Source: Candidatus Poribacteria bacterium
GTDB lineage: Bacteria > Poribacteria > WGA-4E > WGA-3G
NCBI GenBank assembly: GCA_022823085.1
Contig: JAJDXV010000070.1
Location: 4,679-68,678 of the forward strand
DNA length: 64,000 bases
Reading direction: 5' to 3'
This document shows positions 923 through 46,967 of the stretch, piece after piece. The translations under genes and the position numbers were made by a program. Within the stretch, counting starts at the first letter, position 1. Each line of letters opens with the position of its first letter. The notes under the pieces were generated by a model. That model made no database searches. It saw only the letters and a program-made list of their open reading frames with translations, and was not told the DNA's origin.

Positions 923-1554
923 TAGGATAGTGGGACGCGGCACACGGCTGTGGTGTGTGCGTCGCAATACCAGAAGTATCCGTCCCAGTAGGTCATTCCG
1001 TGTGGTTCGGGATGTGGTTCTGGTATCTCGATTTTGTTGAGATGTTTACCGTCTTTCGGGTCGAGATGGAAGATCGCGCGATGGTTGGTCTCGACACACC
1101 AGAGGTCGTCGCCGACCCATGCGATGCCGTGTGGTCTGTCGCCTGGGGCGGGGAGTGTGTGGATGACTTTGAAACCGTCTTCGACATCGACCTGATAGAT
1201 GGTGGCGGAGGGTGGTACTGCCAGCCAGAGTTTGTTATCACGCCATTCCAAACCGTGTGCGCCTGTCTGTCCTGCGCCGGGTGTCTCGAAAGTGGCGAGT
1301 GTATCACCGGTTTCTGGGTCGGTGGATAAGATTTCGCAACTGTAAGTCGATGCGAGCCAGAGCGTGTCGCCTGTATCGGTGATACCGCTGCCTCTGTCGG
1401 AGCCGGTGTCAAGCGTCTTTTTCACATCACCGTCGTAGGAGACGAGATGTACTTCGTTGGTCTGTTGGTCAAGTATCCAGAGTCCGTCTTCGGTGGCTTG
1501 CATTCCGTTGGGTTGTGGACCTGGAGCATCAAAAATTTTTTCGATTGTGGGCAT
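922..1554 (-). CDS. Beta-propeller repeat protein (glutamine-cyclotransferase / SMP-30-like fold), function unknown
   Basis: 210-aa ORF with GGAGG 7 nt upstream. Recurring blade-like motifs DGLWILD, DTLWLAS, NKLWLAV, DDLWCVE, GYFWYCD. Confidence 0.6.
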   Translation of the reverse strand: MPTIEKIFDAPGPQPNGMQATEDGLWILDQQTNEVHLVSYDGDVKKTLDTGSDRGSGITDTGDTLWLASTYSCEILSTDPETGDTLATFETPGAGQTGAHGLEWRDNKLWLAVPPSATIYQVDVEDGFKVIHTLPAPGDRPHGIAWVGDDLWCVETNHRAIFHLDPKDGKHLNKIEIPEPHPEPHGMTYWDGYFWYCDAHTTAVCRVPLS

Positions 1555-2816: not shown

Positions 2817-2973
2817 AGAAGGTGTTTACATTTGGTTATCAAAATCGCTGAGAAATGATGAACATCAGGTTATCTGCTGCAGATTGAATAGGTCCTTGCA
2901 GAACCATAGAGGGCTTGCCGTGACTGGATCCGGAAGTACAATCTAAACACAACCTACAAACAAGGAGATTACT

Positions 2974-3699
2974 ATGAAGAAAAGTTTAGAAAAAGTCATG
3001 TATATGGGCATTGGAGCTGTTATCGCCCTTCTCAGTTTCGGTTTGGGAAACCTCCACAGAAACACGGCAAATGCACAAGGAGAGGCACCTATCGTTGACC
3101 TCATCCGATGCAGGCAATTGGAAATTGTCAATGCAGATGGGTTAAACAACGTTATCTTAAGCTCAAATGAACAAGGCGGAAGCGTGGAGGTTTACAGTGA
3201 AGAACTTTTGTTAGGTAAAGTAAGACTTTCAATCAGTGAAAATGGAGGCGACGTGTCCGTTCACGGTAAAAATTATAAAGATCTTGCATCACTTCGTATT
3301 ATCGCCGATGGTGGAAGCGTGGCCGTTAGGAGGGAAGATGGTAAAGGCGGTGCTATGCTTAGCACCGACGAAGACGGCGGAGTGGTAAACATTATTAATA
3401 AAGAAAATAAAGGCTCAGTGTCCCTTTATAACCATAAAAACGGTGCATTCATGGATTTTTACGGTAAAGAGGGCCAAAGATTACGCCTTATTATGTCTGA
3501 TGAATTTGGAGGAGGCGTGTTGATTTCCGGTAAAGATAAGCAAAGTAGTGTATTGCTTAGTAACGATGAATACGGCGGGGGCATCGCTATCTTTAACAAA
3601 GTGGGTAAGATTGTGGGGCAATTCAGTGTTAGCGATATAGGTAGTGGTATGCTCAGTACACGCGACAAGCACGGCTACAAGACTGGAAGCGTACCATAA
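2974..3699 (+). CDS. Membrane-anchored/secreted repeat protein, unknown function
   Basis: 241 aa with AGGAG RBS. N-terminal hydrophobic anchor MYMGIGAVIALLSFGLG. At least five 20-25-aa units built around GG-x-V/I-x-V/I...K (ENGGDVSVHGKN, ADGGSVAVRREDGK, EDGGVVNIINKENK, EFGGGVLISGKDK, EYGGGIAIFNKVGK). Confidence 0.65.
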   Translation: MKKSLEKVMYMGIGAVIALLSFGLGNLHRNTANAQGEAPIVDLIRCRQLEIVNADGLNNVILSSNEQGGSVEVYSEELLLGKVRLSISENGGDVSVHGKNYKDLASLRIIADGGSVAVRREDGKGGAMLSTDEDGGVVNIINKENKGSVSLYNHKNGAFMDFYGKEGQRLRLIMSDEFGGGVLISGKDKQSSVLLSNDEYGGGIAIFNKVGKIVGQFSVSDIGSGMLSTRDKHGYKTGSVP

Positions 3700-3920: not shown

Positions 3921-5171
3921 TTGGAGATTACTTTGAATATTGATGCATTAAAAGGAAAAACGGTTGGTGCTGCTGTTTCGGGTGGCTTGGATAGCTGCAC
4001 GATTACGAAATGGTTGGTTGATAACGGGGTCAATGTTGTCTGTTTTACGGCGGACCTCGGTCAACCCGATGAACGGGACGTTTCCGAAATCAAGGAACGG
4101 ATGTTAGCGTGCGGTGCCGAAGAGGCGGTTATTGTAGATGCGAAGGATGCACTTGCGGAAGACGGTATCCGACTCATTCAGTGTCAAGCGATGTATGAGG
4201 GTGGCTATTGGAATACGACAGGCATCGCTCGGCACGTTACGGTGAAGGCACTTCTACCAGAGATGGAGAAACGCGGTATCTCTATTTTAACGCATGGTGC
4301 GACGGGTAGAGGCAACGACCAGGTGCGTTTCCAACTGGCTACGAATATGCTGAATCCGCACTTCTCTGTCTATGCACCGTGGCGGGATCCGGAGTTTCTC
4401 AAAGTGTTTGGCGGTAGGAAAGAGATGATAGACTTCTGCCAAGCGCGCAACCTACCGGTTACTGCGACGCATGAGAAGCCCTACTCAACCGATGCAAACC
4501 TTTTGGGACTTACACATGAAGCCGGACGCCTTGAATCTCTGAAAACGCCAGCGGGTTTTATCAATCCGGGTATGGGAGTCCATCCGAAAGACGCGCCTGA
4601 TGACGTGGAGCATTTTACTGTTACTTTTGCGCGTGGAACACCGGTTGAAGTCAACGGGAGTCCTGTTACAGCCCTTCAGAGTCTGCTGGAGGCGAACCGT
4701 ATCGGTGGTCGGAACGGGATCGGTATCGGCATTCACACCGTTGAGAACCGGTTTGTCGGGATTAAGAGTCGTGGCGTTTATGAATCTCCGGGAATGGAAT
4801 TGCTTGGGAAGTGTTACGAATATCTGCTCCAACTGATTTTGGACAGACGTGCGCGTCGCCATTTTGATAGTGTGGCACCGGTAATCGCTGAACAGATTTA
4901 TCAAGGCTACTGGTTTGATGCTGCGACGCAGGCGTTACTGTCCTCGATTCAGCCGCTGACCGATTTGGCGAGTGGGACGATTACGGTGGCACTCTACAAA
5001 GGCAATGTCGCATTTCACGCCGCAGGTGGCGCACAGCATTCGCTCTATTCCGAAGAGACCGCGTCCATGGAGGCGATCGGTGACTTTGATCATGCGGATT
5101 CGGAAGGTTTTTTAGCGGTGCTTGGCGTAGGTGCGCGGGCATCGGCTGTTGCTGGACAGACACAGGAGTAA
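3921..5171 (+). CDS. argG: Argininosuccinate synthase
   Basis: 416 aa. AVSGGLDSC N-type ATP pyrophosphatase motif and full-length argininosuccinate synthase-like sequence. TTG start at 3921 (alternative TTG at 3933, 6 nt after GGAG). Confidence 0.9.
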   Translation: MEITLNIDALKGKTVGAAVSGGLDSCTITKWLVDNGVNVVCFTADLGQPDERDVSEIKERMLACGAEEAVIVDAKDALAEDGIRLIQCQAMYEGGYWNTTGIARHVTVKALLPEMEKRGISILTHGATGRGNDQVRFQLATNMLNPHFSVYAPWRDPEFLKVFGGRKEMIDFCQARNLPVTATHEKPYSTDANLLGLTHEAGRLESLKTPAGFINPGMGVHPKDAPDDVEHFTVTFARGTPVEVNGSPVTALQSLLEANRIGGRNGIGIGIHTVENRFVGIKSRGVYESPGMELLGKCYEYLLQLILDRRARRHFDSVAPVIAEQIYQGYWFDAATQALLSSIQPLTDLASGTITVALYKGNVAFHAAGGAQHSLYSEETASMEAIGDFDHADSEGFLAVLGVGARASAVAGQTQE

Positions 5172-5174
5172 AGT

Positions 5175-6167
5175 TTAAGGGACCTCAAGTTTTGCGAACA
5201 CTTGTTTGATGATATTTTCGACATCTTGTCCATCTGCTTCCGCTTCGTAGCTGATGATGACGCGATGCCTGAGTACGTCCATACCGACAGCGTGAATGTC
5301 CTCTGGTGTGACGTAGCCGCGCTGTGAGAGGAATGCTCTTGCCCTTGCGGCGAAGGCGAGAAAGATGGTTGCCCGCGGGGATGCGCCGTATTCGATGCGT
5401 GTGCTGAGCTCGTCTAACTGATATGCTTCCGGTGTGCGCGTTGCACAGACCAAATCGACGATATAATTCTCCAACTGTTCTGCCATATAGATGTTTCGGA
5501 CGACTTTTCGGAACCGCACAATATCGTCGGGTGAAATCACTGGCTGGATGTTCTGGATCTCTTCAGTTGTCATCCGTCGGAGGATTTGTAATTCCTCAGC
5601 ATGTGAGGGATAGTCGACCTTAATCTTGAGCATGAACCTATCTACCTGTGCTTCCGGTAGCGGATAGGTGCCTTCGTGCTCGATAGGATTTTGGGTTGCC
5701 AAGACGAGGAAGGGGTCATCAAGTGGGTATGTCGTGCCGCCAATCGTGACCTGCCGTTCTTGCATGGCTTCAAGGAGTGCGCTTTGGACTTTCGCGGGGG
5801 CGCGGTTGATTTCGTCTGCGAGGATGATGTTAGCGAAAATCGGTCCCGTTTTGGTATAAAAATCGCCCTTCTGCTGATCGTAGATAAGCGTCCCGATCAG
5901 GTCGGCTGGGAGTAGATCGGGGGTAAACTGAAGACGGTTGAAGGAAGCATCGATTGTCTGCGCGAGTGCACTCACAGCGGTTGTCTTTGCGAGTCCGGGT
6001 ACGCCTTCGAGTAGGATGTGGCCGTTGCTAAGCAATCCGATAATCAGTCCTTCTAACAATGCTTTCTGACCGACGATCACTTTTCCCGTTTCTGTGAGTA
6101 TCTGCTGGACGAGCCCACTATCTGCTTGGATGCGGGCGTTCATCGCGTCTAAATCGTAGTTTTTCAA
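5175..6167 (-). CDS. MoxR-family AAA+ ATPase
   Basis: 330 aa, TTG start. Walker A GVPGLAKT, Walker B ILADEINRA, and LQFTPDLLPADLIG typical of MoxR/AAA_3. Confidence 0.85.
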   Translation of the reverse strand: MKNYDLDAMNARIQADSGLVQQILTETGKVIVGQKALLEGLIIGLLSNGHILLEGVPGLAKTTAVSALAQTIDASFNRLQFTPDLLPADLIGTLIYDQQKGDFYTKTGPIFANIILADEINRAPAKVQSALLEAMQERQVTIGGTTYPLDDPFLVLATQNPIEHEGTYPLPEAQVDRFMLKIKVDYPSHAEELQILRRMTTEEIQNIQPVISPDDIVRFRKVVRNIYMAEQLENYIVDLVCATRTPEAYQLDELSTRIEYGASPRATIFLAFAARARAFLSQRGYVTPEDIHAVGMDVLRHRVIISYEAEADGQDVENIIKQVFAKLEVP

Positions 6168-26907: not shown

Positions 26908-28348
<1,441 letters not shown>

Positions 28349-36289: not shown

Positions 36290-36409
36290 AGGACTTACGC
36301 AATTTTTGACTGTAGGCGGTTGTGTTAGATGAAAGTTTTCTGGGAACACGACGTTTTTGCGTCACAAACTAACAGTTTGTGGTACAAAAGAGCGTCATGC
36401 GTAAGTCCT
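36290..36409 (+). repeat. 120-nt TIR-bounded intergenic element, copy B
   Basis: Same termini as copy A, about 10 differences from copy D. Lies between trpD and trpC. Confidence 0.85.
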
Positions 36410-36435
36410 ATAATAGATGTTTCTGCTTCAGATCC

Positions 36436-37520: not shown

Positions 37521-37639
37521 AGGACTTACGCAATTTTGACGATAGCCAGTTTTTTTCGCGGATATTTCTCGGAAAACACAACGTTCTTGGGGCACAGACT
37601 AACAGTCTATGCTACAAAAGAGAAGCATGCGTAAGTCCT
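37521..37639 (+). repeat. 119-nt TIR-bounded intergenic element, copy C (most diverged)
   Basis: Identical termini, but the left half of the interior is replaced. The internal hairpin is kept with covarying bases (CACAGACT-aac-AGTCTATG). Confidence 0.8.
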
Positions 37640-37688
37640 ATATAATTCAATGCTTCTGTTAGGCAGTGGCTGCTTTTCTTTAAGCGGA

Positions 37689-44361: not shown

Positions 44362-44946
44362 ATGAACAAACTTTTTAAGCCGCAACCGGATTTGGAAGAG
44401 AGACTTGATCAAGTCAACGAGCGGATACGACGGACTCAGCGGACGCTCGATTGGCGAGCTCGGGAAGCGCGTAGTGCGCTCACTGTTTCAGAAAATCATA
44501 ATATCTCTGAATTGCAAGGCGAGGTGCTGGTACTTTCACGTAGCGGGGAGCTACAAGACAAGGTGCGGGATCTCGTCCGTTCGGAAGGCTATGGATGTGA
44601 TGCGACAGGCGGTAGGAGCACCGCGATCGGTATGCTGAAAATGAAGAAATACCGTCTGGTAATTACCGACTACACCAGCCGGCGACGCGGACGGTTCTAT
44701 GCATATATCAGGCGGTATCAGCCACACGTGAAAATTATCTCAGTTGTCCGCAACAACGATGAGGGACGACAGGTCATGAGAGCGGGCTGCTACAGTTACC
44801 TGTTAGGTCGTGGTTTTGACCCAGAGCAGCTGCGCACGTGTCTTGTCAGCGGACTAAAGTTGCAGAATGATGTCTGTTGGTTGTTGGCAAATGGTGAACG
44901 CTGCAATCGATCCTGTGTAGATAACTTTGAACCTGAAGGTCAATAA
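44362..44946 (+). CDS. Receiver-like (pseudo-REC) domain protein with coiled-coil N-terminus
   Basis: 194 aa. VLVLSRSGE...LVITDY...KIISVV...YLLGRGFDPEQL follows the CheY-fold spacing but lacks the acidic pair and the conserved Lys. TTGGAA-18-TAGAAT at 44270-44299. Confidence 0.5.
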   Translation: MNKLFKPQPDLEERLDQVNERIRRTQRTLDWRAREARSALTVSENHNISELQGEVLVLSRSGELQDKVRDLVRSEGYGCDATGGRSTAIGMLKMKKYRLVITDYTSRRRGRFYAYIRRYQPHVKIISVVRNNDEGRQVMRAGCYSYLLGRGFDPEQLRTCLVSGLKLQNDVCWLLANGERCNRSCVDNFEPEGQ

Positions 44947-45146
44947 CCCCCTGCTAAAGCATGGGGGCTTGTGCGAAGCGTATACCAAACGTTCACTCCA
45001 CAAGTTAAACTATTTTCTACAGTAAAATATCGCAGTATCTTGGTATGGTAGCCAGACCTATATTTCGGATGCTCCCCAAGTCTGATTTCTCTTGGATATT
45101 GCGATCTGGAAGGGGCAATACAAACTCCATTGGAGACTTACAAACT
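44947..45146 (+). ncRNA. Candidate omegaRNA of the IsrB-type nuclease (boundaries approximate; may extend 5' into the upstream gene and 3' into the ORF)
   Basis: Position immediately 5' of the isrB-like ORF. Several nested hairpins (44947-44967; 44982-88 with 45040-46; 45011-29; 45076-95; 45125-35). No plausible coding content. Confidence 0.45.
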
Positions 45147-46175
45147 ATGTTTGTTCCTGTTGTTGATAAAAACCAAAATCCACTTATGCCTACGAAACCT
45201 TCACGGGCAAGGAAATGGATTAGAGATAAGAAGGCGACACCTTTTTGGAAAAATGGTGTATTTTGTGTCCGTCTTAATGTTGACCCGTCTGATAGATATT
45301 TTCAAGATATTGCTGTTGGTGTTGACCCCGGCAGTAAGAAAGAGGGCTTTACTGTGAAGTCCGAGTCTCACACCTATCTTAATGTGCAAGCAGATGCTCA
45401 TAGCAAAGTCGGTAAGAAAGTAGAAAAGCGTCGTGAGTTGAGGAGAGGGCGTCGGTCTCGAAAGTGTCCTAACCGAAAGAACCGCATGAATAGACTTGCG
45501 AATAAGGTTCGTATTCCGGCAGGCACGCGTGCGAGATGGGACTGGAAACTACGGATACTTGACTGGCTCTCTAAACTCTATCCGATTACCCATATCTGTG
45601 TTGAGGACATCAAAGCCCGGACGATAGAACGCGCTAAGAAATGGAACACCTCATTTAGTCCGCTTGAAGTCGGTAAACAGTGGTTCTACGCTGAAATCAA
45701 AAAACGTTGGCAGCTGCGAACCCTCCAAGGGTGGGAAACCAAAGAGATACGCGATCGGTTAGGCCTGAAAAAGTCGTCAAAGAAACTATCAGAAACCTTT
45801 GATGCCCACTGCGTTGATAGTTGGTGTCTCGCATATCATACTGTTGGCGGTTCAGATATACCGGATAACACGGATATATTCTGTATATCGCCTATACCGA
45901 TACAGCGAAGGGCGTTACATAGAGAGCAACCGAAAAAGGGTGGGATACGTTCAAGATATGGTGGAACGGTGTTGGCGAACGGACTCGTCAAGAACACGCT
46001 CGTCAAGCACGCGAAGTATGGGCTTACCCGTCTATCAGGTATCAATGCGAAAGGCTTATTTGCTCTCTACAACCTTGACGGGAAACGATTAACAACTGGC
46101 ACGAAGCGAAACAGTTTTAGAGTTCTAACACGGCTCAATTTCAACTATAGGAGCGGTGTTTCCTCTCCCCGCTGA
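45147..46175 (+). CDS. isrB: IsrB-type OMEGA nuclease (IscB homologue lacking the HNH insertion)
   Basis: 342 aa from the internal ATG of ORF 45045..46175. PLMP motif NQNPLMPTKPSRARKWI, RuvC-I VGVDPGSKKEG, RRxRR stretch RRELRRGRRSRK, RuvC-II ICVEDIKA, RuvC-III FDAHCVDSW. About 65 aa between RuvC-II and III with no HNH. Basic C-terminal domain. Confidence 0.75.
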   Translation: MFVPVVDKNQNPLMPTKPSRARKWIRDKKATPFWKNGVFCVRLNVDPSDRYFQDIAVGVDPGSKKEGFTVKSESHTYLNVQADAHSKVGKKVEKRRELRRGRRSRKCPNRKNRMNRLANKVRIPAGTRARWDWKLRILDWLSKLYPITHICVEDIKARTIERAKKWNTSFSPLEVGKQWFYAEIKKRWQLRTLQGWETKEIRDRLGLKKSSKKLSETFDAHCVDSWCLAYHTVGGSDIPDNTDIFCISPIPIQRRALHREQPKKGGIRSRYGGTVLANGLVKNTLVKHAKYGLTRLSGINAKGLFALYNLDGKRLTTGTKRNSFRVLTRLNFNYRSGVSSPR

Positions 46176-46256
46176 AGCGTGGGAGTCTCCACACCGAAGA
46201 TTTTGATGAATATAGGATCATTGAGTGAGTCTTCCATAGACGACAATATTAAAAAT

Positions 46257-46375
46257 AGGACTTACGCAATTTTGACTGTAGACTGTTCTGTTAGAAGAAA
46301 GTTTTCTGGAAACACGGCGTTTTTGCGTCACAAACTAACAGTTTGTGGTACAAAAGAGCATCATGCGTAAGTGCT
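46257..46375 (+). repeat. 119-nt TIR-bounded intergenic element, copy D
   Basis: Starts 81 nt after the isrB stop. Three differences from copy A, two of them a compensatory pair. Right terminus is GTGCT instead of GTCCT. Confidence 0.85.
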
Positions 46376-46415
46376 AAAAAATAGGAAGAACCTTCGCCCG
46401 AAAACGACAGAAAAA

Positions 46416-46967
46416 ATGGCAACAAATTTAGAATTCAAAGCACGGTGTGAGTCGCTTGAAGACCTTTACCGAAGATTGGTTGCGCTAAATGCGCAACATC
46501 GTGAAACCGTCCATCAAATTGATACGTATTTTTCTATGATGACAGACGCAGCTGCTTCAACACAGAAAGACTGCAAACCGCGTCTTAAATTGCGTGAGAT
46601 TGATGAGATAGGTGAAGCGTGGCTTATCTATTATGAGCGTCCGAATCAGAATGAATCTCGCTATAGTCAGTATCACCTCAGCAAAATCAACGATCCATCA
46701 ACCCTCAAAACGTTGCTAACCGCTGCTTTAGGCATCGAAACGATTGTCGAAAAACAACGAGAACTCTGGATGTTCAAGAATACACGTATCCATCTTGATA
46801 CGGTTGCCGGTTTAGGGGAATATATCGAATTGGAAACGGTATTTCAGGGGCAAACTGAAGCCGAAGCGATAGCGGAACATCAACATGTTAAAGATATACT
46901 TCATTTAGACACTGCCGAGCCGGTTGCTGTTTCTTATAGCGACCTGATTATGCAAAAAACGTCATAA
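46416..46967 (+). CDS. CYTH-domain protein (class IV adenylate cyclase / CyaB-like)
   Basis: ORF trimmed to MATNLEFKAR. HQIDTYF, LKLREI, LDTVAGLGEYIELE are colinear with CyaB-type CYTH proteins. The first Glu of ExExK is Asn (NLEFK). Confidence 0.65.
   Translation: MATNLEFKARCESLEDLYRRLVALNAQHRETVHQIDTYFSMMTDAAASTQKDCKPRLKLREIDEIGEAWLIYYERPNQNESRYSQYHLSKINDPSTLKTLLTAALGIETIVEKQRELWMFKNTRIHLDTVAGLGEYIELETVFQGQTEAEAIAEHQHVKDILHLDTAEPVAVSYSDLIMQKTS

Follow-up and report, generated by a model that had tools for sequence, protein, structure and literature searches.

The 64,000-nt window analyzed here (positions 4,679 to 68,678, forward strand, of contig JAJDXV010000070.1 in assembly GCA_022823085.1) comes from the sponge-symbiont genome of a Candidatus Poribacteria bacterium (GTDB lineage Bacteria; Poribacteria; WGA-4E; WGA-3G) and carries at 44939–46205 what is very probably a non-autonomous insertion sequence (IS) of the IS200/IS605 family, the sole cargo of which is a predicted OMEGA system, i.e., an omegaRNA and the gene isrB for an HNH-less ancestor of Cas9. 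IsrB, omegaRNA, the NTGA target-adjacent motif (TAM) and the non-autonomous IS200/IS605 lifestyle have all been published already, and nothing in this case is conceptually new. New are the ends of the element, its empty site and insertion position, the flanking ATGA, the position of the guide, at least 318 relatives and the candidate trans-mobilizers. The principal features are as follows.

44939 to 46205, + strand: whole predicted non-autonomous IS200/IS605-type element, 1267 bp, junction uncertain by one G
44919 to 44938, + strand: putative guide-encoding flank, AGATAACTTTGAACCTGAAG, host DNA directly 5' of the scaffold in the 3' end of a response-regulator-like gene
44939 to 45146, + strand: predicted omegaRNA scaffold, ~208 nt, from the HEARO match and covariation
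44947 to 44967, + strand: subterminal imperfect hairpin CCCCCTGC-TAAA-GCA(T)GGGGG, first omegaRNA stem-loop and presumed TnpA-binding hairpin, right end (RE) in the TnpA convention
45147 to 46175, + strand: isrB gene, 342 aa, stop codon 46173–46175, inside the open reading frame (ORF) listed as 45045–46175
46154 to 46196, + strand: compound subterminal stem-loop, the other end, left end (LE) in the TnpA convention
46154–46159/46191–46196, + strand: LE outer stem CGGTGT/ACACCG
46165 to 46185, + strand: LE inner hairpin CTCCCCGC-TGAA-GCG(T)GGGAG
46206 to 46209, + strand: ATGA, predicted TAM and insertion-site motif, host DNA outside the element, TCAT on the minus strand

Element ends, empty site and family

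Relatives were collected by a scan with one genome per species in which matches were confirmed by tblastn. At least 318 were found in Poribacteria genomes, the best 80 of the 318 were inspected, and 76 of the inspected IsrB loci have full flanks. When the flanks of these 76 copies were compared by BLASTN and MAFFT, homology started abruptly at 44939 (GTCAATAACCCCC...) and stopped at ...GAAGATTTTG, after which ATGA follows. The breaks in homology fall at identical positions in at least 60 copies, and the alignment to the Rfam family HEARO likewise has its first position at 44939. Alignment of homologous loci, by which an earlier note on this DNA had proposed to find the element ends, thus yielded the boundaries 44939 and 46205 and corrected both limits that the note had drawn: the conserved RNA begins not at 44947 but at 44939, within the last codons of the upstream ORF, and the element ends at 46205 rather than 46256.

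Orthologous loci were retrieved with the gene upstream of the element (44362–44946). The nearest of them, L081, is a precise empty site that lacks exactly 44939–46205, which shows that the element is mobile and its insertion polymorphic. The empty joint between L081 positions 3077 and 3078 reads ..GAACCCGAAG/ATGAATAT.. (in a longer reading ..GATAACTTTGAACCCGAAG/ATGAATATCGGATCATCGAGTGA..), i.e., the left flank of the window joined directly to its right flank, with 87% and 92.7% identity to the window over 300 nt per side. Six more orthologous loci (L082–L087) are all without the element, and comparison of the filled with the empty site reveals no target-site duplication. The insertion point lies between ..CTGAAG and ATGA.., 8 codons ahead of the original stop of the host gene, and gene and element have the same orientation. 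As a result, the host protein tail DEYRIIE* has been turned into GQ*, whose stop is the element's own TAA at 44944–44946. As the conserved element start GTCAATAA contains this TAA, insertions in the 3' ends of genes gain an immediate stop in one frame. In nine other loci (L009, L014, L036, L047, L049, L052, L059, L061 and L071; left junction at about 2793) a same-strand upstream frame likewise enters the element and terminates within its first ~13 nt.

A copy that lies within a host gene's 3' end, is oriented like that gene and provides its stop might be a domesticated IsrB, fixed at this locus for a host function such as RNA-guided regulation or shaping of the upstream gene's 3' end. We consider this very improbable: the element is precisely absent from L081 and also missing from L082–L087, hundreds of copies with ends of the transposon type are found at unrelated sites that share a target motif, and the sequence 5' of 44939, where the guide would be encoded, is unrelated flank sequence in every one of the 76 copies. 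Of the two alternatives that the earlier note had left standing, a non-autonomous or a domesticated solo copy, the first is therefore retained, while the second conflicts with the empty site and with the sharp ends of a family that numbers at least 318 copies.

The nearest proteins are from Candidatus Poribacteria (80–92% identity) and, where named, are annotated as "hypothetical" or "RRXRR domain-containing." Among the best 80 of the 318 relatives, 12 are on OZ244616.1, 10 on OZ253447.1 and 7 on a third chromosome, and a search of the 64-kb window found no second copy of the element. Our search of the available literature found no paper linking Poribacteria to IscB, IsrB or TnpB. ORF-less miniature derivatives composed of omegaRNA fragments and the right end (~270–390 bp) were observed in L056 (~1095–1361, minus strand) and L060 (~5395–5783), and are similar to the non-coding, PATE-like derivatives known from IS200/IS605 elements.

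The predicted IsrB protein and omegaRNA

The 342-aa protein is an IsrB, an HNH-less OMEGA effector of the IscB family, for which RuvC catalysis and TAM reading are predicted. Its regions, assigned by domain homology and, for the C-terminal part, by alignment to the IsrB of Desulfovirgula thermocuniculi (DtIsrB), are listed below (all + strand, residue numbers).

~1 to 55: PLMP domain
D60: RuvC-I
~94 to 116: arginine-rich bridge helix
E153: RuvC-II
H221/D224: RuvC-III
C-terminal part, with R314: phosphate-lock/WED/TAM-interacting region

A phmmer search of PDB sequences matched DtIsrB (8dmb_P) with an E-value of 2.4e-36 over query residues 3–318, with IscB structures far behind, and Pfam RRXRR (PF14239) matched residues 3–156 (E 7.9e-34). 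The motifs occur in the order that the earlier note had read from the translation: PLMP at residues 12–15, VDPG with D60, RRGRR at 99, VEDIK with E153 and DAHCVD with H221 and D224. In the alignment to the PDB sequence, D60, E153, H221 and D224 fall on the DPG, TED and H..D RuvC motifs of DtIsrB, as had been expected of the catalytic residues, and R314 is aligned with R323, the residue by which DtIsrB reads its TAM (PMC9581776). D60, E153, D154, H221, D224 and R314, as well as L13, M14 and P15 of the PLMP motif, are invariant in 75/75 copies. Database homologs are 340–344 aa long and share the start Met of the window copy. The internal ATG at 45147 is thus upheld as the start codon, and the 34 in-frame codons upstream of it are non-coding, as previously suggested. 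The ORF is intact (~340 aa, ATG start) in 71/76 loci, and the ratio of nonsynonymous to synonymous differences (pN/pS) against the window copy ranges from 0.10 to 0.25 (median 0.19, n = 71). Hence, the isrB family is under purifying selection. An AlphaFold2 model built from 37 sequences is of moderate quality (pLDDT, the predicted local distance difference test score, 62) and was for that reason used for its top fold match alone, with no residue-level claims. Foldseek placed 8dmb_P first (E 1.1e-21, TM score 0.52–0.54, 335 aligned columns), followed by IscBs and then RuvC resolvases.

The PLMP, RuvC and bridge-helix regions are common to IscB, so that a double-strand nuclease of the IscB/Cas9 type, or part of a CRISPR locus, has to be weighed as well. 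The spacing between E153 and H221 is, however, only 67 aa (about 65 aa in the earlier note), and the 342-aa protein has no Pfam match to an HNH domain. The NCBIfam IscB model is matched only in its N-terminal half (positions 3–157 of 314; 96 bits versus a cutoff of 175), which is expected for an HNH-less relative. There are no spaced direct repeats within 30 kb, and no Rfam family was found at gathering score anywhere in the window. We give this explanation almost no weight. The identification of the protein as IsrB in the earlier note, together with the profile searches that it had proposed, is thereby confirmed.

The leader is a real omegaRNA, as predicted from comparative evidence. In a permissive search with Rfam HEARO (RF02033), 44939–45148 was aligned over the full length of the model (1–211), with a score of 25.3 bits (E 0.016) that is far below the gathering score of 83. 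The covariance-model search proposed earlier thus gave a full-length alignment of sub-threshold score. For comparative analysis, 51 distinct homologous omegaRNA leaders were aligned with MAFFT. RNAalifold on the raw alignment returned 28 pairs only and missed the pseudoknots, and an exhaustive search for column pairs that covary produced too much noise, owing to tolerated G-U pairs. A structure of 63 pairs in 12 helices, including two pseudoknots, was therefore built by hand and then tested. It contains the following elements, all on the + strand.

44939–44944/45012–45017: helix P1
44947–44954/44959–44967: helix H1
44968–44973/44999–45004: helix H2
44975–44981/44989–44994: helix H3
44983–44987/45046–45050: loop-loop pseudoknot TACCA/TGGTA, from covariation
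45041–45044/45051–45054: helix H4
45020–45022/45106–45108 plus 45029–45039/45095–45105: helix H5
45065–45070/45080–45085: helix H6
45072–45075/45112–45115: possible pseudoknot
45125–45128/45132–45135: Shine-Dalgarno (SD) hairpin CTCC-ATT-GGAG, from covariation

In this structure 89% of cells are paired, compared with 33–45% when partners are slid by 1–3 columns. Double-sided changes occur in 30/63 pairs (224 cells), and 0/500 shuffles reach any of the five measures. The 11-bp long-range stem 45029–45039/45095–45105 is 96.6% paired, with changes on both sides in five pairs, while the second pair of the loop-loop pseudoknot (44984/45049) is A-U in 22 copies and G-C in 19. Both-side changes are also found in 5/8 pairs of the 44947–44967 hairpin and 3/4 pairs of the SD hairpin. 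Copies are 75–93% identical in the leader, compared with a pS of 0.43–0.85 at synonymous sites of the ORF next to it, so that conservation of the leader is an independent sign of constraint on the non-coding part. The single-sequence folding energy is marginal (z −1.70; 9/200 shuffles as good), and the strong evidence for the predicted omegaRNA is comparative. The omegaRNA assignment of the earlier note is thus upheld by the HEARO match and the covariation, and so are two of its hairpins, 44947–44967 and the SD hairpin. The three middle helices that it had drawn (ATACCAA/TTGGTAT, TATTTT-N7-AAAATA and CCAAG-N10-CTTGG) are not, as they are paired in 71.9% of cells versus 72.9% after shuffling across the 51 leaders, with 3 pairs showing double changes versus 4.9 in shuffled controls. 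The true partner of the TACCA loop (44983–44987) is TGGTA at 45046–45050. In the closing stem GCTCC/GGGGC of the earlier note, 4/5 pairs are possible but invariant.

A hairpin TATTGC/GCAATA implied by cmscan was rejected after inspection of the alignment, in which GCAATA is near-invariant and the proposed partner varies without compensation. Two copies have unusual leaders: in L006 (~2950–3003) the first hairpin (CAATAACCCCCACTAAAGTAGGGGCT) is fused nearly directly to the ORF, most of the omegaRNA being deleted, and L018 (2788–3003) has an aberrant leader with a different 5' part.

Guide position, mobilization and proposed mechanism

In DtIsrB, the guide consists of 20 nt located 5' of the scaffold (PMC9581776), and the same length is assumed here. 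At the empty site L081, ATGA stands directly behind the counterpart of 44919–44938, which is identical in 19/20 nt. In 64 copies, the four positions behind the element end are A56/G7/T1, T59, G59 and A61, and the next base is mostly A or T, so that RTGA (TCAY on the transposon strand) follows at least 60 independent insertions. The TAM of DtIsrB is NTGA (PMC9581776), and in Geobacillus elements TTCAT, in transposon orientation, is the common TAM/target of GstIscB and TnpA (Meers et al., 2023, bioRxiv 10.1101/2023.03.14.532601). At the occupied locus the guide-matching 20 nt are instead followed by GTCA, and the resident copy, being without a TAM, would not be targeted. Element and upstream gene share a strand in 44 cases and are on opposite strands in 15. 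This excess fits read-through transcription, and the published orientation bias likewise favors the same strand (Meers et al., 2023).

The element has no terminal inverted repeats. Each of its ends carries an imperfect hairpin in which a T is bulged and the loop is 4 nt long. The hairpin at 44947–44967 covaries between copies (CCCAAGTC/GACTTGGG, CACCCTGC/GCATGGGTG and CCCAACCC/GGGTTGGG), and its reverse complement resembles hairpins of Poribacteria IS605 tnpA-tnpB elements. At the other end, the LE outer stem covaries as CGGGCA/TGCCCG, CGGATT/AATCCG and CGGGCT/AGCCCG, the inner hairpin, whose loop holds the isrB stop codon, covaries as well, and the minus-strand DNA of the whole stem-loop folds with z −2.74. 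According to tblastn, no Y1 transposase adjoins 75/76 full-flank copies. As only ~1.5% of iscB genes are near tnpA (Meers et al., 2023), a missing adjacent tnpA is the norm for such elements. The exception, L076, has a tnpA (Pfam Y1_Tnp, E 4.5e-39) followed by a tnpB (OrfB_IS605 and Cas12f1-like_TNB). TnpAs of the L076 type occur at no fewer than 45 loci in Poribacteria genomes, some of which are rich in IsrB copies. The left end of the tnpA-tnpB elements reads TTAT/CAAATTCTTCGGTGTCAAAACCCCCTTGCTTTAGCTGGGGGATGTAGACACCGCC and the right end of the IsrB element, in reverse complement, TCAT/CAAAATCTTCGGTGTGGAGACTCCCACGCTTCAGCGGGGAGAGGAAACACCGC, with a common architecture of T(T/C)AT directly followed by CAAA.TCTTCGGTGT-hairpin-ACACCGC. 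Based on this end homology, the Poribacteria IS605 TnpAs are candidate trans-mobilizers of the IsrB elements. In L076 (2792–4054 and 4055–5710, the same region as L096), the IsrB element lies inside the IS605 tnpA-tnpB element, exactly at the ATGA of the tnpA start codon, so that tnpA is cut off from the left end and from the presumed promoter.

Based on published IsrB, IscB and IS200/IS605 biology, we propose that transcription would start in the flanking host DNA, probably as read-through of the upstream gene, and that ~20 flank-derived nt would form the guide portion of the RNA, joined to the scaffold. IsrB would bind this omegaRNA, its PLMP domain contacting the terminal hairpin with the Shine-Dalgarno sequence, and the complex would recognize guide-matching DNA followed by NTGA, read by R314, whereupon RuvC would nick the non-target strand. 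Guide match and TAM would be present together only at the element-free joint ..GAAG/ATGA. IS605 tnpA-tnpB elements with homologous ends would provide a Y1 TnpA in trans, and this enzyme would cut the element out as single-stranded DNA and integrate it beside TCAT/ATGA. Nicked empty joints would favor recombinational re-installation of the element, i.e., its homing or retention.

Several points weigh against this interpretation. Besides the HEARO score below gathering and the moderate structural model, no Y1 transposase was found in the 64-kb window by tblastn with an IS608 TnpA sequence as query, in agreement with the earlier note, which had seen none adjacent. A promoter scan gave 5 sigma-70-like sites versus 3.1 expected, none of them convincing, and a terminator scan was uninformative. 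Stem P1 of the window copy has two mismatches (U-U and C-U) at positions that are unpaired in 19–30 of the 51 copies. Because IsrB is a nickase, it is harder to see how its cut would promote re-installation than it is for the enzymes tested by Meers et al. (2023), which cut both strands.

Some of these points could also mean that the element is a structurally intact but inactive relic that neither moves nor cuts, its protein or RNA being non-functional or no compatible TnpA being left in the genome. The P1 mismatches and the lack of tnpA within the window would fit, as would nearest relatives that are just 92% identical, with no identical sister copies seen, and the absence of the copy-rich OZ244616.1 from the top TnpA loci. 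On the other hand, the ORF is intact with all catalytic and TAM-reading residues kept, pN/pS is low against every relative, all helices other than P1 and both ends are intact, and related genomes with 87–93% identical flanks differ in whether the insertion is present. We regard a relic as unlikely and prefer the non-autonomous IS with an OMEGA cargo.

More tentatively, the Poribacteria elements might be a compact IsrB subfamily that is at present in an active burst specific to this lineage and in which the nickase sustains retention or homing of a trans-mobilized IS, the features of this possible subfamily being the ~208-nt scaffold, the mesophilic host, the ATGA TAM and a guide transcribed by read-through from host genes. 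If true, it would provide a natural test case for the benefit of nick-only OMEGA systems to their transposon, and small programmable nickases of mesophilic origin could be obtained from it. Irrespective of this, the element is a clean natural example whose ends are defined to one base and whose empty site displays the pre-insertion target and putative TAM. It adds a covariation-backed RNA structure under the Rfam threshold, a plausible partner transposase with homologous ends and a large, selectively maintained family in uncultured sponge symbionts. The family could supply compact mesophile nickases and could serve as a data set on the benefit of a nick-only, RNA-guided nuclease to its transposon.

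The neighborhood has further features. The 194-aa product of the upstream host gene (44362–44946) weakly matches the receiver domain Response_reg (E 6e-4, below cutoff) and has a conserved C-terminus rich in Cys, and the downstream gene (46371–46967) encodes a CYTH-domain protein (E 4e-12); the two are a syntenic pair in several Poribacteria genomes. A 121-bp repeat resembling a miniature inverted-repeat transposable element lies at 46256–46376; its terminal inverted repeats are 13 nt long (TAGGACTTACGCA/TGCGTAAGTGCTA), and it contains a palindrome in its interior. Further copies at 26908–27027, 36290–36410 and 37521–37640 make four in the window (78–100% identical). The repeat is also present in L081 (3128–3248) and L034 (241–361) and missing from the same intergenic region of L082–L087.

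Comparison with known systems

The closest characterized system is DtIsrB (Altae-Tran et al., 2021; Hirano et al., 2022, PDB 8DMB, PMC9581776). The two proteins are alike in size (342 aa in the window, ~350 aa in DtIsrB) and have an identical domain order of PLMP, RuvC-I, bridge helix, RuvC-II, a short HNH-less linker, RuvC-III and a TAM-interacting C-terminus. The equivalent of R323 is kept as R314, and the ATGA of the window fits an NTGA-type TAM. In both systems the omegaRNA lies directly upstream of the gene, with the guide at its 5' end and a terminal hairpin that holds the Shine-Dalgarno sequence, which in DtIsrB is stem-loop SL7. Despite these similarities, the window protein is only ~30% identical to DtIsrB, and its scaffold is ~208 nt instead of 262 nt. 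The phosphate-lock residue N265 of DtIsrB is Q in the window copy and N or Q across the Poribacteria family. Moreover, the DtIsrB host is a thermophile, whereas the host of the window is a mesophilic sponge symbiont.

With the IscB-type omegaRNA HEARO, the leader shares a full-length alignment that begins at the transposon boundary, the first hairpin (CCCC..UAAA..GGGG), a CUUG/CAAG stem, a UCGGAU..GUCUGA hairpin and a long enclosing stem. With 25 bits, where the gathering score is 83, it is not a member by the Rfam criterion but related in architecture, and the cmscan alignment is partly mis-registered against the covariation-supported structure.

The IscB elements of the ISGst family (Meers et al., 2023) likewise have an omegaRNA bounded by the transposon end, with a guide taken from the flank. 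There too, the TAM equals the target motif of the transposase (TTCAT there, T-TCAT on the minus strand here), no tnpA is adjacent, the elements have the same orientation as the upstream gene, and autonomous tnpA-tnpB elements with related ends are found in the same genomes. They differ in that their cargo is IscB, whereas that of the window element is the HNH-less nickase IsrB, and in that mobilization by TnpA is proposed for the Poribacteria elements from the homology of the ends only.

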